From assembly GCF_021513275.1 (NCBI RefSeq), contig NZ_CP090978.1, positions 5,187,247 through 5,251,246 on the forward strand: a stretch of 64,000 bases of DNA. Reading direction: 5' to 3'. The translations under genes were made by a program, and so were the position numbers. Within the stretch, counting starts at the first letter, position 1. Each line of letters begins with the position of its first letter. The notes beneath the pieces are model-generated. The model made no database searches and was not told where the DNA came from. It saw only the letters and a list, made by a program, of their open reading frames with translations. Positions 15,083-45,591 of this stretch are shown here, piece by piece. The stretch is from Paenibacillus hexagrammi (GTDB lineage Bacteria; Bacillota; Bacilli; Paenibacillales; NBRC-103111).

Positions 15083-15189
15083 ATTACGCTTTACGCATAG
15101 ATTAGCTGGCCAGATAGATGTACAAAAGGAAGTACACTCATGCAGCCGTTTCCCCCTCTCCTATTCCCGCGTAGGCGATGGTACTGACA

Positions 15190-15350: not shown

Positions 15351-15386
15351 AGGCCTTAGCATACGGTTCACTTTTAATCACTAAAA

Positions 15387-26765: not shown

Positions 26766-29700
26766 CTATTCAAACGCCTCATTTCTATTACTGTCCCGTG
26801 TCTGTTCCCATTCTCTCACTTTTCGAATGCTTTGCTCAAAATTAACTTCTTCTTTTATTGCCCACTCAGCTACCATGACGTTTTCATGGCCTTTAAGTTC
26901 AGTTAGTAAAGCTAGACGAGTCTGTAAAATATTAGCTAGGGATCCACTCCATGATGGTGGTCTAAAAGATTCTTTGAAATGATTAAGTACTTCTACAGGG
27001 CTTGGCGCTTGTATAATAAATTGTTTTGCTAATTTTGTCCAACAAACTACCCCATTATCTTCCATCGATTTATAAGGCATAAGTATTGAAGCAGCTGTTA
27101 TGAACCTTTGTGTAGGTTCTTCTTTACACCAATCGAGAAGTATTTCATCATCAATATGTGCTAATGGATTTTTAGGTCTAATACTATGGAAGATCCAATA
27201 CATATCGTCTATTGTTTCCTCGTTCAGAAACGTATCCATGAAAACAATTGGTTGGGTAGCTGCAAGTGCCACGAGCACATCGTCATAATCCGTGGAATAA
27301 ATGTCGTGCTCTATGAATGCTTTAAGAAGTCTCGAGCATAAAAATCGAACCAGTTCCGTTGAACCTCTATCTTTCATACAAATTTTTATGATTGTCGACA
27401 GCTTTGAATCCAAACTATGAATAGAGTTATCTTTTCGTAAAAAAAGATAACGAGAAATAAGCTCATAAGCAGACTCCTTGATAATTTTACTTATTTGATC
27501 AACATTCTGTCGGTGAATTCTCATATATAGAAGTTCAATAGATACAGTTATCCCTTCTTCATTATTAGAAATTAATGTTAGTAGTTCTGAAAGCTCAAAA
27601 TCACTAATTTCATGCCTTCTTGCATAAGCTAATTGTCTATACATCCACATAGGTGCTTTCCCAACTACTAGTGATTGCTTAAGTCTTTCAACACCTTTTG
27701 AATCTAACTGCGTGCTACTCTGTAATAAAGGAAAAGCTGCACTCCATACTGGATCGACAACTGCTGTATTCAAAAGATCGTTACATAATTGTGTATCTCT
27801 AAGAGACAGCTCATCTAAAAATCCTCCAACAGCTTGATAGTTACGTTTTGATTCATCAATTTTTTGCAAATAGATTCTTAAGATCTCCCATACCATTTTA
27901 GGGTTACTACACCCTTCAGCGAGACCTTGACCGAAATAAAATAATCTATTCCCTGATTCAGATAAGAGCTCTGGAAGCAATTCTATATAAATTTCCTCGT
28001 TCAGGCCTACTTCCTTACCTATTGATCGTGTTATTTTATCTACCATTTCATAACTTTTTTCGGGATCTTCGTCGTCATCTTCAAGTACATCAATTAAATC
28101 GTATGGATGACCTTTTGAAAAAGCGTACAATCTTGCTCGCTCAATTAACGTTGATGGTATTAGTATACGTTCCAATTCTTCTAATTGTTTTATTATTTCA
28201 GTACTCATTTCCTTGTTATCATACCTGAGGATGGACTTTACAGCTATCCATCCCTCTTTCCATACAAATTTCTTCGAGATAGTGATAGCAGCCGAATATA
28301 ATTCGTCGAACATACCAACACCTACCCAGAGTTCCCTAAACCTTTCAGCTAATAGATTCATTGCTTTGTTCGAGAACCCCAAATCTGAGATACTAACGTT
28401 AACAGCATAGTCAATAAACAACTTGAACCATCGAATTACTCCATCATTTGTTTGAGGGAAATAACCATAGTCCCTTGAATGTGCACCAAATTCGAAATCA
28501 TTATATGAACTAATACTCCATGCTTGGAGAGAAGCACTTAACAAAGAGAATCCTAACTCAATCTTTTCGTTTTGCTTTGAATACAACAACCTCTCAATGA
28601 CACTTAGCCTCTGAACGGCCGTAGCATGAGTACCCGAAAGCTTTATATAAAACAGCGATTGGAGCGATTTTCTTATAGAGTTCTGATTTTCATTCTGTCT
28701 TTCTGATAACGCAAAGTGGCAAAGTAAATCAGTTGATCGGATAAACATTTCTTTTTCATATGCTAAAGACCTCAAAAGTCTCGTAATTTGTAAATAATGA
28801 TGGTTCTCGCGACTAAAAAACCACTCGCTTCCTTTTTTATTAGCTGCTCTTTCAATTGCTTCTAGTGTTTTTTCAGGATCAATAGGCGCAACATTAATTA
28901 ATAAATCTATCCCTAATGAGTCTAAACTCAAAACATCCCCCAAAAGTCCTTCTTCAACTAACCACATTCTACTTATTTCCCTTGCCGCTTTGCAATCATG
29001 AAGGTATCTAAGACGTCGGGAGAATGATCTCATAAGTCTTTCTGATGCCCGATTTCCAAAAATATTCAAGATAAACTCAACAGGAATATCTTCAAGTGCA
29101 CGTTTTGCCAACCTGTTAGCAACAGCATGTGGCAACACTGCTCTCCATATGCCACGTTGCTGAACTAACTCGCGGCGTTGTAATTCCTTAACAAATTGAT
29201 ATAGTTTCAGCACGGGGATTCCTATAATAGAGCTTAGGATTTCTAATTCACCATCTTTACCTTGATCAATTTGGCAGTTAAAAGAATAAACAAGTGAACA
29301 AACCTTAGCAACACTAAATAGATCATCACTAGGCTCATTTCGCTGTAAAAATAATCTCGTGAATAGATCCTCATCCTTTAGATGAGAAACATCATCACCG
29401 TGAGAAATCGTTTTACATAGTGCGATAGCAATACGTGCATTTCCTCCTGAAAAATTAGCAACAATTCTAGTACAAACTTCATTAATATGCGGAAAGCGAA
29501 TCTGAATAACCTTTTCCACTATTTCCTTAGAAGCAGGTTCTAATCGAAAAACCTCTGTTTCTTCCGGTTGATCTTCTCTTACATCATATTCAATAGTAAT
29601 CAAACTTACTTGACTACCATTTGCCAAACATATTGTTGTTAGTGGCTTATGCAAACTCGGTGGACAATTATCGATTGCCAATAAAGAATATTTTCGAGTA

Positions 29701-30569
29701 GCTACTAATTGTTCAGCAAAATTCTGCGGATCCGGGATAGGACGATTAGCGATATCGCAATAAAAAACTTTGGTCTTGTCTAAGGCGTTTTCTCCGATCC
29801 TTTCATCAAATAGCGCTTGCAATAACCGCGTTTTACCAACTCCAGACAGGCCAACTAAACGTACTACAGATCCAGGCTTATTTAGAGTTACACGAAGATT
29901 GTTTATACCATCTTTAACAGATAGCCCTTCGGATAGACGTGTTGTACTACTATACAGACGAATGTGACCATCTGTAAGATACTCTTCGTTCAATTCTCCT
30001 AAGGGATTAGACCAATTCTCAAAAGGCCTCCAACCTTGAATCGGACGACCTATCTTACCTCTAACCCAAAGAATAAGTGAAGGATGACATCTCACCCAGG
30101 CAGCTACTCTATCCCGGTCATAAAAATCGAGTTTTATCGTTGCTGCATACGGACTGTCTGAGATTGCTTCCTGCATCGCCCTTCTTCTCTTCATAAGTGC
30201 TAAATCTGATGTAGAGCCTTGACTACTTACAATGATATATGCACCATTAGCAGCAGCTAATTCATTAATTACTTCGCGCAATTCTCCATCTGGGCGCATT
30301 TCTTCTTTTATTTTCGCGGATGGCATATCAGGTTTCTTTACTTGAAATCCAGTATTTGACCGTGGTATGTAACTATCATTATGAAATGTTGAGTTCAGTT
30401 CAACCCTAACATCTAATCCCCCATCTTTGGCATTATGATGTCCACCCCAAGTTACACCCGATGTTGGTAATCCTATAGAATACAATTCAGCCTCACATAA
30501 AAGTCCGATAAGTGCCCGAAGATCAACATCACTTAAGTGTTTTATATCTTCTCCAGAAATTTCAAGCAT
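26766..30569 (-). CDS. STAND-class NTPase (1267 aa) with N-terminal Mrr-like PD-(D/E)xK nuclease domain and C-terminal helical repeats; Avs-like anti-phage candidate
   Basis: N-terminal 'AKDGGLDVRVE...GFQVKK' matches the Mrr catalytic (DGG.D...Q.K) pattern. Walker A 'GLSGVGKTRL', Walker B 'LLAIDNC', then >800 aa of alpha-helical repeats. The gene is markedly AT-rich relative to its flanks. Confidence 0.5.
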   Translation of the reverse strand: MLEISGEDIKHLSDVDLRALIGLLCEAELYSIGLPTSGVTWGGHHNAKDGGLDVRVELNSTFHNDSYIPRSNTGFQVKKPDMPSAKIKEEMRPDGELREVINELAAANGAYIIVSSQGSTSDLALMKRRRAMQEAISDSPYAATIKLDFYDRDRVAAWVRCHPSLILWVRGKIGRPIQGWRPFENWSNPLGELNEEYLTDGHIRLYSSTTRLSEGLSVKDGINNLRVTLNKPGSVVRLVGLSGVGKTRLLQALFDERIGENALDKTKVFYCDIANRPIPDPQNFAEQLVATRKYSLLAIDNCPPSLHKPLTTICLANGSQVSLITIEYDVREDQPEETEVFRLEPASKEIVEKVIQIRFPHINEVCTRIVANFSGGNARIAIALCKTISHGDDVSHLKDEDLFTRLFLQRNEPSDDLFSVAKVCSLVYSFNCQIDQGKDGELEILSSIIGIPVLKLYQFVKELQRRELVQQRGIWRAVLPHAVANRLAKRALEDIPVEFILNIFGNRASERLMRSFSRRLRYLHDCKAAREISRMWLVEEGLLGDVLSLDSLGIDLLINVAPIDPEKTLEAIERAANKKGSEWFFSRENHHYLQITRLLRSLAYEKEMFIRSTDLLCHFALSERQNENQNSIRKSLQSLFYIKLSGTHATAVQRLSVIERLLYSKQNEKIELGFSLLSASLQAWSISSYNDFEFGAHSRDYGYFPQTNDGVIRWFKLFIDYAVNVSISDLGFSNKAMNLLAERFRELWVGVGMFDELYSAAITISKKFVWKEGWIAVKSILRYDNKEMSTEIIKQLEELERILIPSTLIERARLYAFSKGHPYDLIDVLEDDDEDPEKSYEMVDKITRSIGKEVGLNEEIYIELLPELLSESGNRLFYFGQGLAEGCSNPKMVWEILRIYLQKIDESKRNYQAVGGFLDELSLRDTQLCNDLLNTAVVDPVWSAAFPLLQSSTQLDSKGVERLKQSLVVGKAPMWMYRQLAYARRHEISDFELSELLTLISNNEEGITVSIELLYMRIHRQNVDQISKIIKESAYELISRYLFLRKDNSIHSLDSKLSTIIKICMKDRGSTELVRFLCSRLLKAFIEHDIYSTDYDDVLVALAATQPIVFMDTFLNEETIDDMYWIFHSIRPKNPLAHIDDEILLDWCKEEPTQRFITAASILMPYKSMEDNGVVCWTKLAKQFIIQAPSPVEVLNHFKESFRPPSWSGSLANILQTRLALLTELKGHENVMVAEWAIKEEVNFEQSIRKVREWEQTRDSNRNEAFE

Positions 30570-30735
30570 GATCAGCTGTCACCCCTATTTCAAACGACTA
30601 AATTCTCTTTTTTCAATACTAGGCTCATGTTATTTATCAAAATTCTTATTCTCCATTTATGAAAATTGTTTACTAGAACAAGAATAAACCGTCCTTTCAC
30701 TTATCTCGTGATAGACGGTAAAATTAAAACCGGAT

Positions 30736-31131
30736 TTATATTTTTATTAAAGAAACACCAAGCTCGTTTTGGACAAAATTCATATCGGAATCTCGAGACA
30801 ATAAAGTTAATTCATTAACCATAGCAGTTGCAATAATGATAGCATCAGGTGTTTTAAGCTTACGCCTTTTTGCTTTCTGCTCCCTACGAATGATCCCGGC
30901 TAGCTTTGCACTCTCCGAAGTCACCTCTAAACATCTCCTTGAGGTAAATAGCTTTTCTGCACGCAGTTGTTCCTCTGGTTTTAAACCCGCGAATACTTCA
31001 CATTCTGTAATCGTAGAAAAGTAGATAGACATTTTATCTCTCGCAGCTTGCTTGATAAAATCGATTACGTTTTTCTCGTTAATCAATATGGCTATCGCGA
31101 TATTTGTGTCAAGTAAATAACCTCGACTCAT
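30736..31131 (-). CDS. vapC: PIN-domain toxin VapC
   Basis: 'YLLDTNIAIA' N-terminal PIN acidic motif and 'DAIIIATA' C-terminal motif. Confidence 0.75.
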   Translation of the reverse strand: MSRGYLLDTNIAIAILINEKNVIDFIKQAARDKMSIYFSTITECEVFAGLKPEEQLRAEKLFTSRRCLEVTSESAKLAGIIRREQKAKRRKLKTPDAIIIATAMVNELTLLSRDSDMNFVQNELGVSLIKI

Positions 31132-31361
31132 GAATCCCATTCCTCACGTGAGCGTTTCACTTCATCAAGTAGTTCTTTGCCTCTGTCCGGTGTTAAAGTC
31201 CCCGCAGCCTCAAGAAGATCATCGATGGAATACTCATCATCTTCGGCTTCAACGGTTTGTCTTTCAAGATCAATGGTCACCCGGGAGTGAGTTATCTGAA
31301 ATTTTTGAAGCATAACTTTAATAGCATTTGCAGTTTGAAGATCAATCTTTTTGGGGATCAA
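31128..31361 (-). CDS. vapB: Putative VapB-type antitoxin
   Basis: Small acidic protein directly upstream of vapC with a 4-nt overlap. Confidence 0.45.
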   Translation of the reverse strand: MIPKKIDLQTANAIKVMLQKFQITHSRVTIDLERQTVEAEDDEYSIDDLLEAAGTLTPDRGKELLDEVKRSREEWDS

Positions 31362-31444: not shown

Positions 31445-32557
31445 TTATCCTGCCTGCTTACCCCCACCTAACAGCGAATTCAGCTGCTCCAGCAGATTGC
31501 CTCCGCCTGTAAGTGAAATGGTGCCGATTTTCTCGCAAATTTTCTCAAGGAATTCGAGCTCCTTCAAGCGGAACAAGGTCTGGTTCTCGTCCATCAGCTT
31601 CGCTGTATTCAGCAGGCTGCGGGTGGAGGCTGTTTCTTCACGGCGGGTGATCAGGTTCGCTTGGGCTTTCTTTTCCGCTAGAAGCACAGTGTTCAAGATC
31701 TCTTTGATATCTCCCGGAAGGATGATGTCCTTGACGCCTGCGGAAAGGAATTTGATTCCGTACTCCTCGCTTTTGTCGTTCAGACGGGATAGCACAAAGG
31801 CCGCAATCTCCTGCTTCATCCGCAGCAGATCGTCAAGCTTCAAGGTTCCTACATACTCACGGAGAATCAGCTGCAGCAGCACATAGATTTGTTCCTCAAA
31901 GGATTTGATCTCCAGCGCACGCAGCGGATCCGTGATTTGGTACTGGCAGACGAAGTTCAGGCGAAGCGTCACTTTGTCTTCCGTCATGATTTCCTGCCCG
32001 GTCATATCCAGCTGCTGCCGCCGCAAATCTACGGTATTGACCGATGCTAGGACGGGTCCCTTCCAGAAGTAATACTTCCCCGGGGTGAGCTGCTTTTGCA
32101 TCACATTGTTGTAAAAAAGCATCCCTGTCTCGTAGTTGGCCACTTCAGACGTATAGAAATAGCCTGCGACCTTCGCCAGGATCGCTCGATCTATCTCAGG
32201 TCCAATCTCAGGCTGACGGATATCGACCCGAGTAAATTCATGGCGCTTCAGCACATTCCAGAATGCATATTTGCCTGCTGTCAAAAGCGATACGAACTTC
32301 CCATCTTCATAATGAAGCGCGTACTCATGATCCTGAACATGGATGACCGTAAGCTCGTCAAGCAGCCGCTGGTCTTGTAAAAATAGGTTCAAGTCTTTCC
32401 CTTGCACATGAAAAGGCTTGGTTACATTCAATAGCACGATTTCATCATCGGAAAATGGCGCAGGACGGTAAACGCCCGGCTGCAGACGCTTCATGTAGCT
32501 GCCTTTTTTAAAGAGTAAACCTCGTTCGTCGGATTTGACGATGTATCTTTTCAACAT
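31445..32557 (-). CDS. SPFH/band-7 (slipin/YdjI-like) domain protein without obvious TM segment
   Basis: The C-terminal half shows an SPFH pattern ('KLDDLLRMKQEIAAFVLSRLNDKSEEYGIKFLSAGVKDIILPGDIKE'). The N-terminal ~170 aa form an extra domain. Confidence 0.55.
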   Translation of the reverse strand: MLKRYIVKSDERGLLFKKGSYMKRLQPGVYRPAPFSDDEIVLLNVTKPFHVQGKDLNLFLQDQRLLDELTVIHVQDHEYALHYEDGKFVSLLTAGKYAFWNVLKRHEFTRVDIRQPEIGPEIDRAILAKVAGYFYTSEVANYETGMLFYNNVMQKQLTPGKYYFWKGPVLASVNTVDLRRQQLDMTGQEIMTEDKVTLRLNFVCQYQITDPLRALEIKSFEEQIYVLLQLILREYVGTLKLDDLLRMKQEIAAFVLSRLNDKSEEYGIKFLSAGVKDIILPGDIKEILNTVLLAEKKAQANLITRREETASTRSLLNTAKLMDENQTLFRLKELEFLEKICEKIGTISLTGGGNLLEQLNSLLGGGKQAG

Positions 32558-32841
32558 AATAGACCTCCCGCTACACGGAATGTGTGTGATTTGACCTTAT
32601 TTAAAGGGAATCCTCCTGTGTCCGATGCGGAGCCGATCTTAAGGATCATCATGCCTGTGCTTGACCGCAAAATGTGGGGATCTCGATGTGAACTCACCTT
32701 CAGCTCGCATACGCTCATCCTGCTATCTGGCGGGGTCGCACTTTGTTCTGATCCGGTATCCGCATGGCTGCAAAGCATCATTCTCAGTGCCCGCCCGAAG
32801 GTAGGCTGAGGGCTCCCGATAAGAGGTCTCATAGATTGTTC

Positions 32842-32915
32842 TTCTGCTCGATGAAAAGTCGAGTGCTCTACCACTGAGCGAATCGCTTGACAGGCGATAT
32901 GGGAATTGAACCCAT
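32842..32915 (-). ncRNA. Circularly permuted tRNA-like element (T-arm -> capped acceptor stem -> D-arm -> anticodon-like hairpin); candidate Y RNA-like (YrlA-type) RNA module
   Basis: The minus strand reads aUGGGUUCAAUUCCCAu (T-arm, TPsiC loop UUCAAUU), AUCGCCU-GUC-AAGCGAU (7-bp acceptor-like stem capped by a triloop), UC, GCUCAGUGGUAGAGC (canonical D-arm) and CUCGA-CUUUUCA-UCGAG (anticodon-like arm). The flanks can pair as UCUCA.../...UGAGA. Confidence 0.5.
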
Positions 32916-33095
32916 TCAACTTGTGAGAGTGCTGCCGAAAGCGGCGTTACAGAATACCTGTTCACAGAGTGACAAGTACTGCCGGATCATGTGGAGATCC
33001 TGACCTGGGTAACGAGCTTCCTCACAACACCCAAAATGTATAGTAAACAGCATGATTGCTGTAGTACCTGAAGGTAAGGTTTGAAAAGTTAATTA

Positions 33096-33964
33096 TCAAT
33101 CCTTGTAAGGATCAAATTCGTCGGCTCCCGCCATGCATACCCCGATCGGCTTCAACACATGAAGAATTTCGATGGTTTCCGAGTGAGCATCCAGGACCTC
33201 TTGCAGCTTCCGGTACACAAAAGGACTCTCATCCGTCCCCGCGCCGCGGAGCTCTACGCCGTACTTACGGACGGCTTCCAGCATTTGTTCTATGGAGATT
33301 TGACCGCCGCTGCGGGACTTCGTTTTCCAATTCATTTTGCCGGCAGCTTGGGTACGGCTCATAATTCTACCGGCTCCATGTACGGTGCTGTAATAAGCGT
33401 CCCTGTTCTCCGCGGAATCCTTCCCCTGTACGATGACCGATATGTCCCCCATACTTCCACCAATAAAGCCCAATTGTCCTGGCGCCGAAGGCGTTGCCCC
33501 CTTGCGAACCACTACCGTCTGCTTACCTTCGTGCTCCTCCATCCAGGCAAAATTATGATGATTGTGCACCTCGAATTCCGCTTCCGCGGATCATCGAACA
33601 GCTCATGATCGACCTTCTCACTATTAGCCCGCCCTATACCAAACGAAACTTTACGTGCAATCTCATCCATCCAGCGGCTCAAGTGAGGCATTGCCTCTTG
33701 AATGTGGATATTCGTCCGAACCGCCTTGTTCCCGCAGGCAATATCATAGCCGACACCCGAGGGTGAAATTTGCCCCTCATAGGCGATCACACCGCCAATC
33801 GGCTGACTGTACCCTTTGTGATGGTCCGCCATCAGCAGAGCTTGTGCCACGCGTCCGGTGCTCGCACACATTTTGGCTTGGGCCAGTGCGCTTTCATCCG
33901 CCTTGCCCCATACTCTCACGCCATCTATCGACTGATAAGCCATGATCATCTGCTCCTTTATCAC
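33096..33964 (-). pseudogene. rtcB: rtcB RNA ligase remnant: N-terminal and C-terminal parts present, ~150-aa central region deleted, plus a frame change
   Basis: N-part 'MADHHKGYSQPIGGVIAY...GVGYDIACGN' and C-part 'EFEVHNHHNFAW...GFIGGSMGD...STVHGAGRIMSRT' align to the ends of E. coli RtcB. The GNHF/HSGSRG central motifs are missing. Confidence 0.75.
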
Positions 33965-34215
33965 ATCAATCTTTCATGCTATTAAATAACCATCCGCTAA
34001 CATATATATCCCATTGTGCCGCTGCCTTCCATGTTGCATCAACCTTACTGCCTCCTTATTCCTTCAAGGAGAATCATCTGTTACTATCTTCGCCGAAATG
34101 AACGGTAATGAACATGGCGAAAGTATTACGACCATAAGGAATTATTTCCAATTCACCTTCTCTTTCTCCCCTGTTACAATTAGGAAAGAATTGGGATAGA
34201 GTCGGAGGAACTGCC

Positions 34216-34842
34216 ATGGCCAAGGAAAGCTTTGATAAAGAGATTCAATTCCTGCGTATGCTGGCGCTGACAAGCGGAGCCTACAGCAGGCAGCAATTCG
34301 CGGAGCGGCTGGGCATTTCTGTCCATACCTTTGATAAAACCATCCGCAAGCTTAAAGATGTCGTAACTACCCTCTACCAACGTCTGCCCGAAGAGCACAG
34401 CAAAGAATGGGAAGATACGCTTCAGTTCAAATATCGGGACTCAACCGATCCGATGCTCCTGTTTGTTTTCCGGGCCAAATCCGTAAAAGAATCGGAAAGC
34501 ATGCGCCTCTCGCTGATCTTGAGCGCCCTTAAGGAACAAGCGCTTACCGCTGCGGAGCTCATGGATCTATGCTCTGGTGAAATGCCTCCCGAGTCATCCC
34601 TGCCGGACGAAAAGACGATTCGAAGCGATCTCAAATATTTGGAAGAAGTCGGCGTCATTCAGCGGGAATCTCAAACCCGACCATACCGCTTCGGTATTCG
34701 GAACGACTTCCTTCAGGATTTAACGAATGAAGAACTCCTGGATCTGTATGATTTTGTAGATATCATGTCCAATACCCAAATTCCTTCCGTACAGGGCTAC
34801 CTGCTTCGGGAGGGCTTAAAAAAATCATTTTCTTCGAAATGA
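34216..34842 (+). CDS. HTH-domain transcriptional regulator (two wHTH-like segments), first gene of a WYL regulator cluster divergent from rtcB
   Basis: 'QFAERLGISVHTFDKTIRKL' and 'LTAAELMDLCSG...IRSDLKYLEEVGVI' helix-turn-helix-like segments. Confidence 0.5.
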   Translation: MAKESFDKEIQFLRMLALTSGAYSRQQFAERLGISVHTFDKTIRKLKDVVTTLYQRLPEEHSKEWEDTLQFKYRDSTDPMLLFVFRAKSVKESESMRLSLILSALKEQALTAAELMDLCSGEMPPESSLPDEKTIRSDLKYLEEVGVIQRESQTRPYRFGIRNDFLQDLTNEELLDLYDFVDIMSNTQIPSVQGYLLREGLKKSFSSK

Positions 34843-34858
34843 TGCAGCGAAGCATGTC

Positions 34859-35533
34859 ATGGAGCCATTTCAGTACAAGTATCACTATCCCTCCCGCATC
34901 CTGGATGAGGCCCATCTCTATCCGTTACTTGCTGCCATACGTAACCGGAGAAGAGTAACCTTTCTCTATTTCTCGCCCAAAACAAAGAAAAGCTACAGAG
35001 CCAAAAATACGAACCCCTTATTTGAACGTGAATCGGAGGGGGAGGGCAATCAAGTTGTGGCTACACCGCTGAAAATCGTCTACGACCATCAATATGGCCG
35101 GTGGTATTTGCTCGGTGTAGGCCGAACGGGGATTACCAAATTCCGTGTGGAGGGCATGACCCAAATTGAGGAGAAGGATGCTGTCGATGAACAGACCTTT
35201 CAAAGCCAGCTCGCCGCTTTAGAAAGAAGTATACAATACAGCTGGCTCATTGATACGGGACGAACCGTTACCGTGAAAGCCCGATTCTTTAAACCCGGTC
35301 CGTCAGACCAGGATTTTATTAAAGAGCGGGTTCTCCTCCAAGGGCAGTGGGGGCAAATCACTCAGGAAGATGAGCACTCGTTTATTTTCGAAATCGAGGT
35401 GAATGGGGTCTTGGAAATCAAGCCCTGGCTGCGAAGCTTCGGTTCGAGCTGCGAAGTGCTGGAGCCGGCGCATCTACGCCGCGAGATGATTGCCGAATGG
35501 AAGGAGATCCGCGCTTACTATGAATCTATTTGA
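34859..35533 (+). CDS. WYL-domain protein with WCX-like C-terminal extension
   Basis: 'YDHQYGRWYLLGV' WYL core and a C-terminal 'IKPWLRSFGSSCEVLEPAHLRREM' WCX-like segment. Encoded in a different frame from the upstream HTH ORF (16-nt gap). Confidence 0.65.
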   Translation: MEPFQYKYHYPSRILDEAHLYPLLAAIRNRRRVTFLYFSPKTKKSYRAKNTNPLFERESEGEGNQVVATPLKIVYDHQYGRWYLLGVGRTGITKFRVEGMTQIEEKDAVDEQTFQSQLAALERSIQYSWLIDTGRTVTVKARFFKPGPSDQDFIKERVLLQGQWGQITQEDEHSFIFEIEVNGVLEIKPWLRSFGSSCEVLEPAHLRREMIAEWKEIRAYYESI

Positions 35534-36326
35534 AAAGATTTTCAACTATCAAATTCTGTCGCGCTTAGAGGACTCCGGCACCTTCGTGGTCACCTCACAG
35601 GAACGGGCCTGGCTGCGGCTGATGCTTCAGCATCCTGCTGCCGCCGAAGCTTTCGCGCCGGATACGCTGCAGAAGCTTGCTGCCATGCTGGATGGAGACT
35701 CGCAGCTCGATGTATCGGGGCATCTGGTTGAAAAGGCGAATGTCTCCGAGCAGCCGGTATACCATCCGCTCTTGCGCCCGCTTCGGCGCCTAATTATGAA
35801 TCGATCAGGCATGCGAATTTCATACCGGTTAAAGAATGGGACGATTTGCTCCGAAGTAAGCGGACTTCCTTACCATTTAGAATATTCCATGGTCAAACGG
35901 GAATGGTATCTGCTCTGGTATCATCTCCGCCATCGTGCCTTCATGAGCACCAGACTGAACAAGATCGATTCCGTCAGCTACGAGTCCATCGACCCGGCTA
36001 CTGCCTCCGATCTTTTTGCATGGATTAAGCAAACGCTAGAAGCTAGAAAAACGGAAGTGACTGTCGAGGTAGACCGAGAGTATAACCGGGAATTATCACG
36101 GATTTTGTATGCTTTCTCCTGCTTCGACAAGGCGGTTGATTATGAGGAGAAGACGGATACTTACCGAATCCGCATTCGTTTGATGGGAGATGAGATGGAA
36201 TATTTGCTGTCTAAAATCCGCTTTCTCGGCAAGCGGGTGCGGGTCATCGAAGGCTGGTATTTGAGAAAACGGATGCTGGAGGCTTCGATGAAGGCTTTGG
36301 CGCGATATGGGGAATTGGCTGAGTGA
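35520..36326 (+). CDS. Second WYL-domain protein (PafC-like partner?)
   Basis: 'VKREWYLLWYH' WYL core and C-terminal 'GKRVRVIEGWYLRKRM'. Start set at MNLFEKIF, overlapping the upstream stop. Confidence 0.6.
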   Translation: MNLFEKIFNYQILSRLEDSGTFVVTSQERAWLRLMLQHPAAAEAFAPDTLQKLAAMLDGDSQLDVSGHLVEKANVSEQPVYHPLLRPLRRLIMNRSGMRISYRLKNGTICSEVSGLPYHLEYSMVKREWYLLWYHLRHRAFMSTRLNKIDSVSYESIDPATASDLFAWIKQTLEARKTEVTVEVDREYNRELSRILYAFSCFDKAVDYEEKTDTYRIRIRLMGDEMEYLLSKIRFLGKRVRVIEGWYLRKRMLEASMKALARYGELAE

Positions 36327-36596: not shown

Positions 36597-39500
36597 TTAC
36601 ACGTACTGTGGTCCTCTAAGCTGCTCTAGAATTTGCGGATCCTTGATCTTCGTATCTTGCGCCAGCATCACAATCTTGGACAATATCTCCGATGTTTTCG
36701 GGTCTTCGTCGATGAAGGGCAGGAACAGCTTACCTCGATGCTGGGAGTGGACCGGCAAGATATATAAGCTGCCGGCTGCTTGCTTTTGGACAGTGCCGCT
36801 TCCTAAGTGAACACCGTATTCTCCGAGAGATCCTGTAATACGGGCAAAATTCCCATCCAGACGTACATTGCCAATTTTCATCAGCCTTAAAGATTCAGTG
36901 ACGATAACTTTGCGAAGCTCGATGGTGGTCAGACTTGCTTCAGGATCGACTCCACCTGCGTGCGCCGTGCTTACTACCAAGTCTACATCGCGCATAATTT
37001 CAGAGAAGATGATGCCTGGTATCGCACTCAGCTCCAGAGGCTTATAAGTCTTCCGGTCGATAAAGGAGACGGTTTCGAGCGTTGGCGCTTCAATATCCGA
37101 TGGAGCGAACCAATCCGCCAAGGCATACACCTGCGCGATGATATTCTCCTTGTGATACACCTTCTGCAGTCCTTCTTCATAGCTGACCGTCCAGAGTCTG
37201 TTTTTCAAGAGGGCCACAGCCCGTTTAGGCTGAATTTGATGACCCGCGTATCGTCTTGAAACCGAGCCGCTCTCGAGCTCATCTTGGTTAGGCAGATACA
37301 GCTCTCTGAACACCTGCTTGAACGGCTGCTTCAACTGCTTGTCGAATAAGAATTTCTGATACTTGCTCCACTGGCCGCTTTGGTACAAATGCAAAGGGTG
37401 AGCGATGCATAGCGTATCTTCCGCGTTTAATCGATAGGTTTCACCGTCCGGGCTTTCCAAACACCCCTCTGCATAAAAGCCAAGTGCTTCACCAGTTTTA
37501 AATACAAGCGTACGAAGAATAGGCGCGATCGTCGGATTGTTCATCAAATTGGAGAGCTCATGATGGGTAAACATGCTTTCTGACTCCATGGATTTCTCAA
37601 ATTCCCGTTTGGCTCGTTTGTTTTGTTCCCTGAGGCTGCTTATGGTTTCTTTTAGAGATATCACGTAGGGATGCTTGTTATATTTCGATGGCACAGCTTT
37701 CAACGTCTTACCTTGTTTGCTTGCCTCCAGGTCCGCCCACCCGATCTCATCAATCACGATCCTCACCTGCAGCTCATCAACGGCTGTCGGTTCCAACAAA
37801 TGAAGGACATCTTCCATTTTTCTGGCTTCCATGTCCCATTTAAGTCGAATCACATCCGAATAGCCGGCATTGCGGGATAGATTATCAAGAGCAATAGCTG
37901 CAGCCTTCGCTTCACTCGCGCTGCGCTGTGCACCGAATGTTTTGCTCTCTTTGAGAAACTGCTGAATGTATTCATATCTCTCCAGCACCTCCCTGTCGCC
38001 GCTTTCACCGATCGGAATTAGACTATAGCTGAGTAAATGATCTTTATTCCGCTTGAACTCCACAGAAGTTCGAATTTCAGCTGCATCCAGCTTGCCCAGG
38101 ACAGCGTCTGCGAACAGCTGGGACCTGCGATGATTGGCTCCTGCGGATATGTATTTCGCACACTGGTACAGCATATGGAAACGTTTCTCCCCCAGTTCCC
38201 GGTACGCTTCCATAAACCAGCGGATATCAAAAGCTCCATCGTTAAACTCCGTTGGCGAGATCGAGGAATAATGAGCAACGATCGTCTCTTTCTCCGCAGA
38301 AAAGTTTTCATTCACGTGAGCATGGAAATACCAGGCGGCACTTCGCAGCCCCTCCCATTGTAAATACTCCGAAATAAGCTCGATCCATTGGGGGGCATAC
38401 ATAGCTGCTTCCAACAGCCTTTTCTCTGAAATATTTCTTCCTCGCAGCATCTCCGTAAGCTTCTGTACATCATCCCCTTCTTTCGGATGACAGACGCGAA
38501 GAAGATGGCTGAGAGCTTCTTTTTTACTTCGATTACCGTAAATGTACCCGCGCACAAACGTTTCCTGGCTCAGGGCAGTTAAAATCGCGACGAAATACTC
38601 CATACCCTCATAATAGGAGATTCCCATGGCCAGATGGGATACATCCGTTGGCAGGTCGCCCCGGTTGAGCTCCAGCTCCAGTATGACGGAAAGGATACGT
38701 TCCTTAAATCGCTGGATCGCGGGAAACTTGTTGGCAAAATCCTCCCTTTTTTCTGTGATGGTTCTCATATGCCATTGGCTTCTTCGCTCACGAATCATAA
38801 GTTCCTGATACATCGTGTTATCGTTGATAAGCCCCAACTCAAGTGCCCTGACAAGGTCCTTTAGCTCAAGACGAAACTCTTCGTAGTCTGTTAGGATATC
38901 GAGATTGAGCTTCATAGCATAATACTCCAAAAACGAGCGATCGTCATAAACGGCATTGCCTGCCCAAGAGATCCACGGCGAATAAAAGAAGCCCCATGCT
39001 TTCGAACTGTCCTTAACATCCTGCTTCTGTAGAGCATTGATGATTTTATTTAAGATCCTGCTTGATATAGTGAAGCGTTCTTGGATATCACTGTCATGAA
39101 AATAGGCGAATACGAGAGAGTGAACCTGCTGCATATACTCGAGATTGGCGCTAAAGTCGAAGAAAGTATGGATCGTTTTCATCGGATATAGCTTAGATAA
39201 AACCTTCTTCCCCCATTCTCCAAGGGGCTTATAGCGGTTTACTTCCCAGCCTGTCAGCTTATCTGCATCGTATTTATACAAGGAATCGGAGCTAAGATAA
39301 AAGACGATTTGAATCAGCTCTTTGGCTGTAAAGCCGCTTTCTCTTAAGTATTGGTCCCATACCTCCGCCAATGGATACCCTTCCAAGTGCGATGCTTCGT
39401 GATCCTGCTTCTGGAAACCCTTTAGCCGATCAAGCCGTGCTCCCAGCAACAAGCTTTCCTTGCTCCCGCTGTATCTTTCACATTTGTATTCATAATCTCT

Positions 39501-41483
39501 GTGCTTATGAACCAGCTCCGACAAGCCTTGTAAAAACGCCTTGATCTTGTCGGCTGACAGGTCAAAGAAATCCTTGACTTGAATCTCAGCATAATCGTGC
39601 AGCTTATAAAGCTCCTGCTTCTTATGCGGATCGTATAAACCGAACCCGCTATGCAGCCCCAATTGTTCCTTCTGGCGTAGTCGTTCTACCAGCGGTCGTT
39701 CTTTATCGGAGGGTTCTTGAATAGCTGCTAAATGATGACTAACCTGCTCAAACTGTGCATGCCTTTCCTCATCTTCCTTCAGCACACAGAGCATTTCGAG
39801 CGCACCTAACCGCTGTAATTCAAGCGGACTATCCAGCAGCGTCTCAAGAGATTGATCTAACAGCTCGTGGTCTTGCTTCAAAAGGATCTTCATAGCGCTT
39901 TGACGCAGCGCGCCGGTCTTCAGCTTCAACAGACCTTGAACGGTTACGGTGTCCTGTGGGGTAAGGCGCATGTTATGAATACGCTTCAATGCTGCCTCGC
40001 GATTGGTCATACTTTTATCCGATAAGGAATCAAAAAGGAACTGCCTCTGCACAGGATTGTCTGCATCGCTGGTAAATGTTTGGATCAATGCGTTGCGCAG
40101 GTCCGGGCTAACCCGATCCTTGAGGGCAATGACCTGAGCGATCATTTCCGCATCCAGATCATAAGCCGCGAGATAAAGCATTTTGTTCGCTATAGCGTCC
40201 GTGGTGTGCGAGTATGCCATCCAATCAAAAACCTTCGATTGTTCGGTCACTTCCTGCTTAGGCATGTTCAACAGCATCGTTCTAAATTGATGAAATTGAC
40301 GAATTCGCAGCTCTTTATCCTCTAGCGTTTGGACCCGATCCAAGGTCGGTTTATGCTTAAGGACCTCATAGTCCGGATGCGAGCGCCAGACACTCGACCA
40401 TTTGTACACATAGTTTCGAATAACAAGCGACTGCAGCTCAAGTTCGGTCTGCTCGATATAGGGAAAAGCAAGCGCAAACCTTAGTGCATCATTTTGGCTT
40501 TGCAACAGGAAATATTGCGCCGCGATTTTTTGGTACGTGTCTCCCTGCTCCATGATGTGGCGCATCGGTTCTGGAAGATGATTCTCTTCCCTGACAGCAG
40601 TCGCCCAAAGGGAAAAATAAAGCTTATGCACATTCGGATCTTTGGCCCATTCCTTGCACCGCTCCTCATCACATAAACACTCGTATGCATACTCGACGCA
40701 CTGCTTAACCACTCTCGTGTTGGCTGCCTCCAGTGCTAAACCCGTCCATACATCCAGCGCACGGATGACAGAGCTATACCGAATAAAGTCATGATCGATA
40801 ATGATCTTGAGCATGAATGTAAATGCTTCCAGGGTACCTTCATCCATAGACTCTACGATGCTTTGGCGAAGTCCCTCCTGCAGCCGCGCTGCGATCAGCA
40901 TTTGTCCTAGCATCTGGTGGGCTTCTGCTTGGTGACTGAAGACAATGCCGCGAATCATCGCCCGATTGAGGAGAGCGGTATTGTTGTCTCCAAACAAAAT
41001 GTCCTTCAGGGCATCAAAGACCTGCCGGTTATTTTGATCCAGTTCATAGGCAAGTATATAGGAAACCATGGAGCTGTCAGCCAGATTGGCTGGTCTGGTC
41101 GTCGTGAGATAGTCTAGGAGAGAAAATTCCGACTTGGTGAGATCGTAGAGGGCGTAAAGCTTGCGAACCATGCCTTCCACATGAACACGCAAATTCTTGG
41201 TCCGAAACGGCCGGCGCGAATATCCGATACTGTAGGGGTAGTCAGTTATGTGCGTGGCTAAATAGCTCATGACCTGCGCCTCGTAATCCCCTGCCTTTTG
41301 TTTCACGATAGAGATAAGAGGGGCAAAATATGACTCCTGCTTCCCCTTCGCATCAATCTCGTTGAGAAGCGTTTCGATCTCCTTGTAAGCCAAACGTCGC
41401 TCGTACGGTTTTTTCTCTAAATTCTCCTGTATGAGTTGCTCCAACTTCTTGGTCGCTTCATCTTTGCGCTGAAAGAATAGCAT
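36597..41483 (-). CDS. Giant cytoplasmic protein (1628 aa) of unknown function with helical-repeat body and a DUF4132-like C-terminal region (YehI/MolR-like)
   Basis: No signal peptide or TM segment. Long alpha-helical repeat composition. The C-terminal ~200 aa resemble DUF4132-type proteins; this is recalled from memory, not computed. Confidence 0.4.
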   Translation of the reverse strand: MLFFQRKDEATKKLEQLIQENLEKKPYERRLAYKEIETLLNEIDAKGKQESYFAPLISIVKQKAGDYEAQVMSYLATHITDYPYSIGYSRRPFRTKNLRVHVEGMVRKLYALYDLTKSEFSLLDYLTTTRPANLADSSMVSYILAYELDQNNRQVFDALKDILFGDNNTALLNRAMIRGIVFSHQAEAHQMLGQMLIAARLQEGLRQSIVESMDEGTLEAFTFMLKIIIDHDFIRYSSVIRALDVWTGLALEAANTRVVKQCVEYAYECLCDEERCKEWAKDPNVHKLYFSLWATAVREENHLPEPMRHIMEQGDTYQKIAAQYFLLQSQNDALRFALAFPYIEQTELELQSLVIRNYVYKWSSVWRSHPDYEVLKHKPTLDRVQTLEDKELRIRQFHQFRTMLLNMPKQEVTEQSKVFDWMAYSHTTDAIANKMLYLAAYDLDAEMIAQVIALKDRVSPDLRNALIQTFTSDADNPVQRQFLFDSLSDKSMTNREAALKRIHNMRLTPQDTVTVQGLLKLKTGALRQSAMKILLKQDHELLDQSLETLLDSPLELQRLGALEMLCVLKEDEERHAQFEQVSHHLAAIQEPSDKERPLVERLRQKEQLGLHSGFGLYDPHKKQELYKLHDYAEIQVKDFFDLSADKIKAFLQGLSELVHKHRDYEYKCERYSGSKESLLLGARLDRLKGFQKQDHEASHLEGYPLAEVWDQYLRESGFTAKELIQIVFYLSSDSLYKYDADKLTGWEVNRYKPLGEWGKKVLSKLYPMKTIHTFFDFSANLEYMQQVHSLVFAYFHDSDIQERFTISSRILNKIINALQKQDVKDSSKAWGFFYSPWISWAGNAVYDDRSFLEYYAMKLNLDILTDYEEFRLELKDLVRALELGLINDNTMYQELMIRERRSQWHMRTITEKREDFANKFPAIQRFKERILSVILELELNRGDLPTDVSHLAMGISYYEGMEYFVAILTALSQETFVRGYIYGNRSKKEALSHLLRVCHPKEGDDVQKLTEMLRGRNISEKRLLEAAMYAPQWIELISEYLQWEGLRSAAWYFHAHVNENFSAEKETIVAHYSSISPTEFNDGAFDIRWFMEAYRELGEKRFHMLYQCAKYISAGANHRRSQLFADAVLGKLDAAEIRTSVEFKRNKDHLLSYSLIPIGESGDREVLERYEYIQQFLKESKTFGAQRSASEAKAAAIALDNLSRNAGYSDVIRLKWDMEARKMEDVLHLLEPTAVDELQVRIVIDEIGWADLEASKQGKTLKAVPSKYNKHPYVISLKETISSLREQNKRAKREFEKSMESESMFTHHELSNLMNNPTIAPILRTLVFKTGEALGFYAEGCLESPDGETYRLNAEDTLCIAHPLHLYQSGQWSKYQKFLFDKQLKQPFKQVFRELYLPNQDELESGSVSRRYAGHQIQPKRAVALLKNRLWTVSYEEGLQKVYHKENIIAQVYALADWFAPSDIEAPTLETVSFIDRKTYKPLELSAIPGIIFSEIMRDVDLVVSTAHAGGVDPEASLTTIELRKVIVTESLRLMKIGNVRLDGNFARITGSLGEYGVHLGSGTVQKQAAGSLYILPVHSQHRGKLFLPFIDEDPKTSEILSKIVMLAQDTKIKDPQILEQLRGPQYV

Positions 41484-41498
41484 GTTCGAACTCCTCCT

Positions 41499-41918
41499 CT
41501 ACCATAGTCGGCCGGCTAACATCGTAAATTTGATAAACGTAATGTCTGCGCCATCCAAAATGTCGATTTCGGTCTCCAGCCCCGTAACCTCCTCATCGCC
41601 AATAAACACCCGATACAGGCCGTCTTCGAACGCTAACAAAGCCGTATGCACGGCCGCTGCTTCGTCGGCCTGACGTTCGTCATACCGGGTACCGAAAGCT
41701 ACCTTACCCTCGGTTCCTCGAGCTTCAATATCCTCCTTCGTTAGAAAAGGAATCAGCTGACTTTCTTCAGCACGCTCGTTGTACAGCTTTACCTGCGCAA
41801 CAACGACTTCAGTAAGTAATTCTTTTAGCGTGTTAGGTTTTGACGCGAGATTGTATTCTTTTTTCATTAAGGAAGGTTTTCGTTTACCGATACTTTTTAC
41901 CGTCGCGTAAATGTTCAT
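41499..41918 (-). CDS. Hypothetical protein (139 aa), translationally linked upstream partner of the giant protein
   Basis: 16-nt spacing to the downstream giant gene; no recognisable motif. Confidence 0.4.
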   Translation of the reverse strand: MNIYATVKSIGKRKPSLMKKEYNLASKPNTLKELLTEVVVAQVKLYNERAEESQLIPFLTKEDIEARGTEGKVAFGTRYDERQADEAAAVHTALLAFEDGLYRVFIGDEEVTGLETEIDILDGADITFIKFTMLAGRLW

Positions 41919-41935
41919 GGCTACTCCTTTGCTGT

Positions 41936-42052
41936 GTGGAGTTTGGTTGTATAGATTGGTTGTGGGGTTTGGTTATGGAGCTTGATTATGGAGCTTGATT
42001 ATGGAGCTTGGTCATGGAGTTTGGTCGTGGAGCTCGTTCGTAGAGCTTCGAT
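41936..42052. repeat. Tandem array, 9 x 13 bp (RTGGAGYTTGRTY)
   Basis: Consecutive units gtggagtttggtt / gtatagattggtt / gtggggtttggtt / atggagcttgatt x2 / atggagcttggtc / atggagtttggtc / gtggagctcgttc / gtagagcttcgat. Confidence 0.8.
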
Positions 42053-42194
42053 GTGAAGCAGTTGGACAGCTGTAAAACGTACGCTGCAACTTCATGATAT
42101 CATCCCTTAAGTTTACTTGGGTAGAATTTTTTGGAAGTTGTGTTGGTAAACAAATATCCCCACATCACAATGACGTAGGGATACTTTGTAAAGA

Positions 42195-45100: not shown

Positions 45101-45407
45101 TCAGTTTATCAGCGATACTGATATCTTCTGAGAAATGAAGGTTATATAACGGATCAGAACCTACGGATGAAATCAGTTGCTCATTTCCTGAGTACGACTT
45201 GTTTTTCTTGGCACTTGGCTTGTACTTTACAATTACTTGACCCGGTACAATGATGGATTGATCATAGTGTTCCGTATTGAATGATTCTAAGGTTATAGGC
45301 TGATTTGCTGCATAAGCCTGAGGTAAGTTGCCGCCCACTAACAGGCCAAACATTAAGACAGCTATCATCCCATTCTTAAACTTGCTTGATGGTCTACTAG
45401 TCTTCAC
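42195..45407 (-). CDS. S-layer-anchored subtilisin-like serine protease (S8 family), 1070 aa, poly-Gly hinge, 3 C-terminal SLH domains
   Basis: Signal peptide. Catalytic 'AVIDTGVD', 'HGTNVAGII' and 'GTSQASPFVAG'. 'GGGGGGGGGGGGS' hinge. SLH repeats ('FADIQGHWAQKDIEKLVSKQILDG...'). Confidence 0.85.
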   Translation of the reverse strand: MKTSRPSSKFKNGMIAVLMFGLLVGGNLPQAYAANQPITLESFNTEHYDQSIIVPGQVIVKYKPSAKKNKSYSGNEQLISSVGSDPLYNLHFSEDISIADKLNALQNDPEVEYAEPVFKVNMIEPVASSVIQSVYSSSDQAYMKNWGKTVTELTYATEQTTPLQNSAVTVAVIDTGVDLTHPDLIQSLVPGYDFVNNRPEAQDDHGHGTNVAGIIAAQAHDATGYTGVAPGVKLMPIKVLDKDGGGTTAAIVQGIQFAIDHHADIINLSLGWDIPSKALQDMVRKAAANNVLVVAAAGNDSNHWINNEVGQLDSDFAHDTHRYAYYSSYPAAYQEVVSVGAVEQLTDSRLTIADFSNIGKIDVVAPGVNIYSTYLNGDYTYMSGTSQASPFVAGYAALLKAYNNNLTNEDLRAILSSMTKGNLVDTNHTYDYENFNSYADEAVTFQMDYGQGLINGKLAYEIPRAKLAVVQDNIAQSRSITFNATFEDLGGNIVPYARPANIDTRWYREGIESREFDFLEGHFENVDLSDGQGTVTVTLDPSSPTDVYHYYFYVDLLDSNNYERRSNYIHEVSRPAAPVPSLASGTYTGTKNITLSSSVSGADMYALLIEGDQIKGAGKVLPTTQIEMDGPNDFLSVYSMKNYVQSDYAEYSYVINPVPTPAPVAIGGGGGGGGGGGGSTSLPVPDANGKMTYDVQPGHVDMLVELAKDAKKELTLDATAKQHIDITTVSFGADIVQKAADKGKPIVIKANDVQLIFPVNALPVANKNDTVKLKVTSEAESAPKNFKAVSPVLDFSLSEKDIPITSFSTPIEATFHYDSSKVKDTSKLGVYWLDESTKTWTYMGGKVNGDGTITVSLPHFSKYAVMEKSQEASGTSTGTADIQTFADIQGHWAQKDIEKLVSKQILDGMNEQFFQPDNQMTRAQLVTILKKALHLQAAAAEKSFEDVADDSWYKEAVYAAFAAKIVGGTSDSTFSPKDNVTREQLAIMMVNAYLNATGKKLEDVAASAQLVNYEDASNINDWAKQYVSVATTLGLLNGVDDTHFAPAQNSTRAQVATVVVRLLEQVKAAK

Positions 45408-45543
45408 ATGAAACCTCCTAATAATGATAGAAAACTAGATCTATTATAATAGAGGTAATGTATGATGTATATTAAATTCTACAAAAATATACATTTTCTC
45501 CTAAATGAATAAACAGAGAGCTTGATAACCGCCACTATATCTC

Positions 45544-45587
45544 AAAAAAATATCCCTACGTCACATGAACGTAGGGATATTTTTTGT
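45544..45587. terminator. Bidirectional intrinsic terminator between the two giant SLH genes
   Basis: Perfect 14-bp palindrome AAATATCCCTACGT...ACGTAGGGATATTT flanked by A7 and T6. A degenerate copy lies downstream of the S8 gene at about 42150-42190. Confidence 0.75.
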
Positions 45588-45591
45588 TAGT

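Follow-up and report, generated by a model that had tools for sequence, protein, structure and literature searches.

Probable recent decay of an RNA-repair locus in Paenibacillus hexagrammi, and the paired WYL-domain regulators that accompany such loci in Paenibacillaceae

When an RNA ligase gene decays, what becomes of the regulators beside it? The question is raised by a 64-kb stretch of the Paenibacillus hexagrammi genome (hereafter the window), where remnants of the RNA ligase gene rtcB on the minus strand lie divergently from an open reading frame (ORF) with a helix-turn-helix (HTH) domain and two consecutive ORFs with WYL domains on the plus strand. A sequence-only reading of the locus had proposed that the ligase is dead, that the regulators are intact, and that they now control something else. 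The ORFs on which that reading was built are all present, and their domain matches are far beyond chance. For comparison, we scanned one genome per species, which gave 402 relatives of the regulator, and we retrieved 80 loci. The closest intact relative is P. aestuarii (locus L001), whose RtcB has 411 amino acids and serves as the reference for the lesion in rtcB. We use REG1 for the gene formed by the HTH ORF and the first WYL ORF, and REG2 for the second WYL gene. Our answer is that P. hexagrammi probably carries, in recently degraded form, an RNA-repair locus that occurs widely among Paenibacillaceae, and that the ligase and the main regulator were both inactivated.

The rtcB gene has kept both termini and is internally deleted, with loss of core catalytic elements, which supports the sequence-only reading on this point. 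In Pfam searches, an ORF at 33512-33964 (minus strand) matches positions 6-97 of the 426-position RtcB profile (E = 1.3e-19), and an ORF at 33096-33569 (minus strand) matches positions 278-424 (E = 4.3e-26). These ORFs overlap in different frames, and the roughly 180 profile positions between the two matches, which correspond to residues ~145-320 of the Pyrococcus horikoshii enzyme, are missing. Alignment to the full-length P. aestuarii gene, a check proposed along with the earlier reading, mapped the deletion: by blastn, positions 33098-33587 of the window match 7797-8286 of L001, and positions 33587-33946 match 8665-9024. Relative to L001, 378 nt (126 codons, for residues 123-248) plus 1 nt are absent, or 379 nt. 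The junction is clean (GATGATCC joined to GCGGAAGCG, with one shared G, or 1 nt of microhomology), and the part downstream of it is out of frame. The 5' part of the pseudogene (33587..33949, minus strand) starts with an ATG at 33949 that is preceded by a ribosome-binding site (AAAGGAG), runs for 121 codons to ...FDDP, and is 83% identical at the amino acid level to residues 2-122 of L001 RtcB. Past the junction its frame reads through 24 meaningless codons before it ends in a stop codon (33512-33514). The 3' part (33096..33587, minus strand; junction at 33587/33588) reads AEAEFEVHNHHNFAW...HGAGR...DPYKD and then a stop codon, and is 93% identical to residues 249-411.

What was lost matters for catalysis. 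In P. horikoshii RtcB, the metal site and GTP pocket comprise Asp95, Cys98, His203, His234, His329, Asn202, Glu206, and the nucleophile His404; His203 and His234 are ligands of metals M2 and M1, respectively, and Asn202 and Glu206 contact GTP (PMC9745838). The deleted segment carries GSGNHF and HFGSRGFGH, which align to Asn202/His203 (and the region of Glu206) and to His234. The remnants retain the equivalents of Asp95/Cys98 (GYDIACG), His329 (HNHHN), and His404 (HGAGR). Members of PF01139 have a continuous RtcB domain of ~400-480 amino acids in one frame and a complete binuclear metal site with its GTP pocket, and the window's rtcB has neither. Because the deletion removes the equivalents of Asn202/His203, Glu206, and His234 and also shifts the frame, the gene as sequenced cannot give rise to an RNA ligase. 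No second rtcB was found within the window. Among the 80 loci, rtcB of the window's type is found within 10 kb in 48, and it is full length (408-415 amino acids) in 47 of these; the copy in L036 has an in-frame stop.

The main regulator is also broken. The plus-strand ORFs begin ~250 bp from the rtcB remnants. An ORF at 34216-34842 (plus strand, 208 amino acids) has matches to HTH_11 and a DeoR-like HTH in Pfam, and an ORF at 34859-35533 (plus strand, 224 amino acids) matches WYL (E = 1e-8; motif RWYLL) and WCX (E = 7.5e-16). In all 80 loci, REG1 is a single uninterrupted ORF of 435-442 amino acids. In the window, three-frame translation gives ...GYLLREGLKK in one frame and HFLRNDAAKHVMEPFQYKYHY in the next, and removing one base makes REG1 exactly colinear with its relatives. 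A DNA alignment with six relatives places the extra base, a T, at 34825 (plus strand), directly after a run of seven A's (34818-34824). In locus L009, the same seven A's are followed by C and REG1 is in frame, so the change in the window is an inserted T and not a difference in the length of the homopolymer. The 5' half of REG1 (34216..34842, with true coding sequence to 34824) is colinear with residues 1-203 of 436-amino-acid relatives and also matches the HTH region of a WYL regulator in PADLOC; the last five codons of the 208-amino-acid ORF are out of frame. The 3' half (34826..35533, plus strand), with the WYL and WCX domains, is in frame from the CAT at 34826 and is 81% identical to L001. 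The ATG at 34859, which is the listed start of the first WYL ORF, does not have a good ribosome-binding site upstream.

Thus, of the HTH gene and two WYL genes that had been described, the two WYL genes are indeed separate, but the HTH ORF is the front part of the first of them, which is frameshifted. The prospect had been raised that the WYL proteins might themselves be one frameshifted gene; this is not so as worded, and the frameshift instead lies within the gene that joins the HTH to the first WYL domain. It also follows that the regulators are not all intact: REG1 is split by the 1-nt insertion, and REG2 alone is whole.

Where does the break fall in the protein? In intact REG1, an N-terminal HTH (residues 10-48) is followed by a canonical winged HTH (~92-162), two linker helices, and then the WYL and WCX domains; it is the winged HTH that corresponds to the HTH of ordinary WYL regulators. 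A structural model would place the frameshift where the second linker helix ends (around residue 203), with the DNA-binding half before it and the sensor half after it. In DriD-type regulators, a helical linker joins these halves, as in the structures of DriD and PafBC. It is very improbable that the split REG1 still works, whether as two polypeptides or by +1 ribosomal frameshifting at AAA-AAA-T. In favor of it, the two halves are still open frames and are conserved, and the break is at the end of a linker helix ahead of the WYL domain, a kind of place where split proteins sometimes reassemble. However, REG1 is unsplit at the corresponding point in all 80 relatives, and all of them do without a frameshift; for the latter reason we rejected programmed frameshifting. 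Also, no stimulatory element is visible, nor a Shine-Dalgarno sequence for the second half, and severing the helical linker should uncouple sensing from binding.

We also considered whether REG1 is broken in the relatives as well, as database searches with the REG1 halves returned fragments. The genome scan and exact look-ups show that full-length proteins are the norm and are present in public databases; the fragment-only matches were due to how clusters are represented. Separately, truncated REG1 fragments from other Paenibacillus genomes (P0022, P0023, P0024, P0044, P0184, and P0195) end at different positions, one of them in a poly-K run. REG1 may have been inactivated independently in several strains, or these fragments may be assembly errors.

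Could the lesions in the window be errors too? We consider it unlikely that one or both are sequencing or assembly artefacts and that the real rtcB and REG1 are intact. The REG1 frameshift is a single base directly beside a run of seven A's, there is a single assembly, and the exact REG2 sequence is known from one contig. On the other hand, the extra base is a T and not a change in the length of the A run, and a clean internal deletion of 379 nt with a microhomology junction is atypical of read error. The window also contains many unbroken ORFs of 1000-1700 amino acids elsewhere, so a generally error-prone assembly is less likely.

Both lesions look recent. Compared to eight other species, the amino acid identity is 72-84% for the N-terminal part of RtcB, 82-93% for the C-terminal part, and 67-80% for REG1, which is as high as for the intact P. 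aestuarii genes. The fragments are still open frames and have diverged no more than those intact genes, which points to recent inactivation. REG2, the promoter module described below, the REG1 promoter, the Y RNA-like gene, and the SPFH gene show no lesion in the window. We think that the locus is best read as having been lost as a unit, with both the sensor and the effector gone and the remnants not yet eroded.

If REG1 and rtcB are dead, what of the genes that follow rtcB? A putative Y RNA-like (YrlA-like) noncoding RNA of ~210 nt (32749..32958, minus strand) lies between rtcB and an SPFH/Band-7 gene. The RNA is homologous to sequences from 17 relatives (nhmmer, E from 1e-11 to 1e-65). Its matches in Rfam are sub-threshold: 24.3 bits for YrlA (model positions 31-81), where the gathering score (RF02553) is 69 bits, and 22 bits for tRNA. 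A relative with rsr (the Ro60 orthologue) as the first gene reaches 41 bits over the full YrlA model; a relative with SPFH first has no match. At curated thresholds, Rfam reports nothing in this locus or in seven related loci, and ARAGORN finds no tRNA in the leader RNAs except for one match in L061. The hallmarks of YrlA are a long stem that joins the 5' and 3' ends and a tRNA-like domain with a T-arm (PMC4201824), and the window RNA has both in the consensus fold. Thirteen aligned RNAs have an 8-bp terminal stem (CGGTATCC/GGATACCG), which is kept in the window with one G-U pair, and there are hairpins at GGGGTTCGATTCCCC and CTCGA-N7-TCGAG (a perfect T-arm of the tRNA type and a hairpin like that of an anticodon). 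The aligned sequences are so similar that they show hardly any covariation.

The SPFH gene (31445..32557, minus strand) is intact. It encodes 370 amino acids, matches Band_7 in Pfam, is 86% identical over its full length to the protein from L040, and is the last recognizable member of the operon. An SPFH gene within an rtc locus has also been reported for Pseudomonas aeruginosa (PMC13086221). The Y-like RNA and the SPFH gene occur together in 17 relatives: in 12 loci the order is module, Y-like RNA, SPFH, RlaP, RtcB, and in five (L043, L049, L055, L071, and L074) it is module, RtcB, Y-like RNA, SPFH, as in the window. Judging from this gene order, the RNA and the SPFH gene are the original cargo of the operon and not a new target.

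This bears on the proposal that three separate, intact regulators outlived the ligase and were repurposed to the Y-like RNA or SPFH, which we now consider improbable. It is true that all three regulator ORFs are open and have good domain matches, and that the promoter module is intact, as are the RNA and the SPFH gene that lie behind it. But all 80 loci encode the HTH and the first WYL domain in one continuous frame, from which the window differs by one inserted T; the ATG at 34859 does not have a convincing ribosome-binding site; and no repurposing is needed if module-driven operons in 17 relatives already carry both genes.

The Y-like RNA is consistently paired with SPFH/Band-7 and not with Rsr (window 32749-32958 on the minus strand, L040 9557-9755, L043 4365-4578, and 15 other loci). 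No TROVE-domain gene (rsr) was found at ~26.7-41.5 kb of the window or within ~10 kb in the 17 SPFH-linked loci. The gene order suggests that this Y-like RNA has a protein partner other than a Ro60 orthologue.

What kind of regulator was lost? REG2 (35520..36326, plus strand) is intact and encodes 268 amino acids; the protein is 100% identical to one from P. hexagrammi (P0053). Its ORF extends from 35490, but the real start is the ATG at 35520, with the ribosome-binding site GGAAGGAGA. Pfam gives a WYL match (E = 3.4e-5; motif EWYLLWY), no match to WCX, and, at E up to 10, no detectable HTH. An AlphaFold model (mean predicted local distance difference test score, or pLDDT, of 81.6) has a helical N-terminal domain of ~90 amino acids at lower confidence, a beta-rich WYL domain, and an alpha/beta C-terminal domain. 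By Foldseek against the PDB, this model matches DriD (E = 1.8e-9), PafBC, BrxR, CapW, and a Cas13d-associated WYL protein. The C-terminal domain appears to be WCX-like, as it aligns colinearly with the REG1 WCX by hhalign and its modeled fold matches that of the DriD C-terminal domain. We therefore place both REG1 and REG2 among the WYL and WCX proteins, and the earlier assignment of the divergent genes to the WYL family holds.

REG1 and REG2 appear to be a pair. Residues 278-426 of REG1 align colinearly with residues 113-256 of REG2 through the WYL and WCX motifs, so the two are paralogous over these domains. In all 80 loci the two genes, which are probably translationally coupled, are adjacent and overlap by 11-14 nt, and REG2 (~270 amino acids in the intact form of the locus) is a separate, intact gene; in the window, the REG2 ATG overlaps the REG1 stop by 14 nt (tactATGAATCTATTTGA). 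Intact REG1 has two HTH regions in the same polypeptide as its WYL domain, REG2 has none that is detectable, and in the window both HTH regions of REG1 are severed from its WYL and WCX domains. The sequence-only reading had likened the pair to PafB/PafC-type heteromers. On the strength of the adjacency and overlap, a two-subunit, PafBC-like arrangement is plausible, but the pair is not PafBC itself: REG2 has no detectable HTH, whereas both PafBC subunits have one, and we did not find sequence homology to PafB or PafC, an actinobacterial Pup-proteasome context, or the RecA-NDp motif.

PafBC, a heterodimeric WYL activator of the DNA-damage response in Actinobacteria, is nonetheless an informative comparison. 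It resembles REG1/REG2 in having two adjacent paralogous WYL and WCX genes, which are probably co-translated; the REG2 model matches its structures (6sj9 and 9fnd); and both systems have an asymmetric motif at a fixed spacing from the -10 element in promoters that do not have a -35. The differences are that REG1 and REG2 have no sequence similarity to the solved structures, that REG2 lacks a detectable HTH while REG1 has an extra one, and that REG1 and REG2 are found in Firmicutes instead of Actinobacteria, with another motif, no linkage to the Pup-proteasome, and RNA-repair instead of DNA-repair cargo. DriD is a WYL activator from Caulobacter that binds single-stranded DNA. It is the best structural match for the REG2 model (8tp8, E = 1.8e-9; for the C-terminal domain 7tzv, TM score of 0.62 normalized to target length), and its order of HTH, helical linker, WYL, and WCX is as in REG1. 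However, DriD is a homodimer from one gene, it recognizes a palindromic box, and it is only ~15% identical in sequence to REG2.

The genes that accompany the pair are RNA-repair genes. We clustered all ORFs from the 80 loci and named the clusters with Pfam. In every case REG1-REG2 either diverges from RNA-repair genes or has them nearby, and the set of these genes varies: RlaP (PF10127) then RtcB; a Y-like RNA, Rsr (TROVE and Ro60 von Willebrand factor A, or vWA, domains), RlaP, sometimes a 520-amino-acid HEAT-like protein, and then RtcB; a Y-like RNA, SPFH, RlaP, and RtcB; an RtcB paralogue of 470-500 amino acids, a Y-like RNA, and SPFH; or Hen1 then Pnkp, often with Tpt1 nearby. In most loci with RtcB of the 411-amino-acid type, RlaP lies between the promoter module and RtcB. 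In the window, tblastn did not find RlaP; the leader from the module to the rtcB start codon (33950..34081, minus strand) overlaps a stretch (33947-34072, by blastn) that has no counterpart in P. aestuarii, where a 263-amino-acid RlaP gene stands. The absence of RlaP could be a third lesion but may not be a loss at all, as the five loci with the order RtcB, Y-like RNA, SPFH do not have RlaP either. Separately, in L004, L006, L008, and L068, a MoxR-like AAA ATPase (353 amino acids) and a vWA/metallopeptidase-like protein (605 amino acids) are encoded between the module and REG1.

These operons share a promoter module. A 23-mer, GAACATGGCGAAAGTATTACGAC, occurs exactly once in the window, at 34110-34132, and is present exactly or nearly so in almost every locus. 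We aligned 86 sites without gaps. The orientation of the 23-mer relative to the repair operon, which is on the minus strand in the window, is constant at all 86 sites. The module as a whole (34082..34132) consists of a left block, TACTATCTTCGCCGAAAT, a fixed spacer, and the 23-mer; on the operon strand its ~50 nt read GTCGTAATACTTTCGCCATGTTCG-N9-AAAT.AGCGA.GATAG. The reverse complement of the left block contains GATAGT, which is plausibly a -10 element, and if RlaP or Hen1 is the first gene then its start codon is 25-70 nt past the module. We could not recognize a -35 hexamer at the right spacing in the module. Given this -10, the 23-mer would span roughly -35 to -58, at a fixed distance from it. 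On the other strand, a probable promoter for REG1-REG2 (34152..34180, plus strand) consists of TTCACC, 17 nt, and a TG-extended TACAAT, and its block CCCCTGTTACAAT is kept in the relatives. The 23-mer is also found far from REG1: upstream of Hen1-Pnkp operons, of Rsr-RlaP operons, and of an unannotated gene for a 707-amino-acid protein.

Extra copies upstream of Hen1-Pnkp or of the 707-amino-acid gene are at 18174 in L001, 17503 in L022, 18593 in L029, 17196 in L045, 16490 in L027, and 15361 in L059. Copies away from REG1 suggest a regulon with several operons. In L036, where the rtcB adjacent to REG1 has an in-frame stop, the neighboring ORF (473 amino acids) is also RtcB-like, and the module recurs between the two (~6.7-8.8 kb in the locus).

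Is the module the operator? It is our one candidate for the site to which REG1/REG2 would bind. A search for inverted repeats in the divergent intergenic region, which had been recommended with the earlier reading, did find one: the two blocks in the window form a 13-nt inverted repeat (34082-34094/34116-34128) with 10 of 13 positions matched. But across 83 distinct sites, which we used for the analysis of symmetry, complementarity is consistent at only ~6 positions, and the 23-mer itself has no symmetry. We also considered that the two blocks might form an RNA hairpin, and we rejected this because there are no compensatory changes in the 83 sites. Given the limited symmetry and the absence of compensatory changes, we read the module as a DNA site.

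The direction of regulation is harder to predict. We somewhat favor REG1/REG2 as an activator, because the site is asymmetric, its spacing to the -10-like element is fixed, and the -35 is missing. A serious alternative, if a somewhat less likely one, is that REG1/REG2 is a repressor like BrxR or CapW, which would cover both blocks of the module (from -10 to about -58) and be released by a ligand. In the window, the blocks do form the inverted repeat just described, and the left block overlaps the -10-like element; BrxR and CapW are among the structural matches of REG2; and the Aravind group generally treats such WYL factors as negative regulators (PMC9503650). However, the dyad symmetry is reduced to ~6 positions when all of the distinct sites are compared, the spacing and the lack of a recognizable -35 resemble the activator-dependent promoters of PafBC and DriD, and the best fold matches, DriD and PafBC, are both activators. 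As known systems, BrxR and CapW resemble REG1/REG2 in fold family and in being divergent regulators beside stress or defence cargo; they differ in that they are single-gene homodimers that act on palindromes and control BREX or CBASS systems rather than RNA repair.

We propose the following mechanism for the intact loci. REG1 and REG2 would form a WYL heteromer similar to PafBC and DriD, and the two different HTH domains of REG1 would read the asymmetric 23-bp site. The WYL domains would sense nucleic-acid fragments, probably damaged RNA ends, and the complex would then switch on the repair operon, whose promoter lacks a -35. WYL and CARF factors have been predicted to sense nucleic-acid fragments and to regulate RNA-repair pathways (PMC9503650), so the link that the sequence-only reading drew between WYL factors and RNA repair has precedent. 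RtcR is activated by damaged tRNA fragments (PMC7790460). RtcR resembles REG1/REG2 by position, as a divergent regulator of an operon with RtcB and sometimes Rsr and Y RNA, but it is a CARF-AAA+ activator of rtcBA that works with sigma-54 in Proteobacteria. No CARF or sigma-54-interacting AAA+ domain was found in any ORF of our locus, and the operon promoter looks sigma-A-like. The Salmonella rsr-yrlBA-rtcBA operon is comparable in its cargo: relatives of our locus have Rsr, a YrlA-like RNA, RlaP, and RtcB behind one promoter, and the YrlA-like RNA in the window has the terminal stem and the tRNA-like domain. It differs in that the RNA in the window and in 17 relatives is paired with SPFH, with no Rsr nearby, that the YrlA score is 24 bits instead of 69, and that the window has no functional RtcB.

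Several points weigh against our interpretation. We infer the heteromer, its binding to the 23-mer, its ligand, and the sign of regulation by analogy with PafBC and DriD, which are the best structural matches, and from the literature on WYL and CARF factors. Profile searches with REG1 and REG2 against PDB sequences gave nothing better than E ~ 0.2, so REG2 was placed by fold comparison alone. The AlphaFold model of REG1 is poor (pLDDT of 60), and we used it just for the secondary structure around the break. Our literature search did not find any experiment or paper on this subfamily. As for the decay, the lesions rest on a single assembly, in which a 1-base insertion beside a homopolymer may be erroneous. 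REG2 or the split REG1 might still be required by any other repair operons that lie outside the window in the 6.6-Mb genome. Finally, none of the 80 loci shows exactly the gene order of the window (RtcB of the 411-amino-acid type first, no RlaP, then the Y-like RNA and SPFH), which leaves doubt about how that order arose.

The surroundings of the locus differ from those in the relatives. Past SPFH, the relatives have RlaP-RtcB (as in those with SPFH first) or other genes, and the window has, directly after SPFH, a stretch of low GC content (35-39%) at 26766-31361. Within it are an anti-phage defence gene of the PD-Lambda-4_A type at full length (1267 amino acids; PADLOC E = 0) and a PIN/VapC-like toxin gene (30736-31140) with an upstream partner ORF of 77 amino acids. 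On the other side, convergent with REG2, positions 36597-50757 (minus strand) encode a 1628-amino-acid protein with DUF5724, DUF4132, and DUF7737, a 1070-amino-acid subtilase-like protein (subtilase/IetS in PADLOC), and a 1721-amino-acid protein with no match in PADLOC. L030 also has a DUF5724 gene near REG2. Further away there is a cobalamin riboswitch (15176-15365, minus strand; RF00174, 94.6 bits).

WYL-regulated RNA repair is a known kind of system, although it was predicted computationally, and the decay of such a locus is ordinary. The pseudogenes are of little importance in their own right, as a case of one species shedding an RNA-repair module; the value is in what comparison with the relatives brings out. 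The REG1/REG2 pair with its 23-bp site is an uncharacterized variant of the WYL regulators and is new relative to the literature that we found. Within one family, this two-gene regulator and a near-invariant 23-bp element tie together operons for RtcB, RlaP, Ro60 and Y RNA, SPFH, and Hen1-Pnkp. We know of no experimental account of how Gram-positive bacteria sense RNA damage and induce its repair; the case that has been worked out is the unrelated RtcR of Proteobacteria. The regulon is a directly testable candidate, as its DNA site and its two proteins are defined and natural mutants exist. A Y RNA-like RNA with SPFH instead of Ro60 also raises the question of what the RNA tethers.

We tentatively propose that a heteromeric WYL sensor, with a long subunit that has two HTHs and a short subunit that has none, is found throughout Paenibacillaceae and switches on an RNA-repair regulon via the 23-bp site; this may well be correct, though we stop short of calling it probable. 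If so, then REG1/REG2 would do in Gram-positive bacteria what RtcR does in Proteobacteria, with damaged RNA ends as its probable signal, and P. hexagrammi would be a natural double knockout of the ligase and the sensor that still has the Y-like RNA and its SPFH partner.

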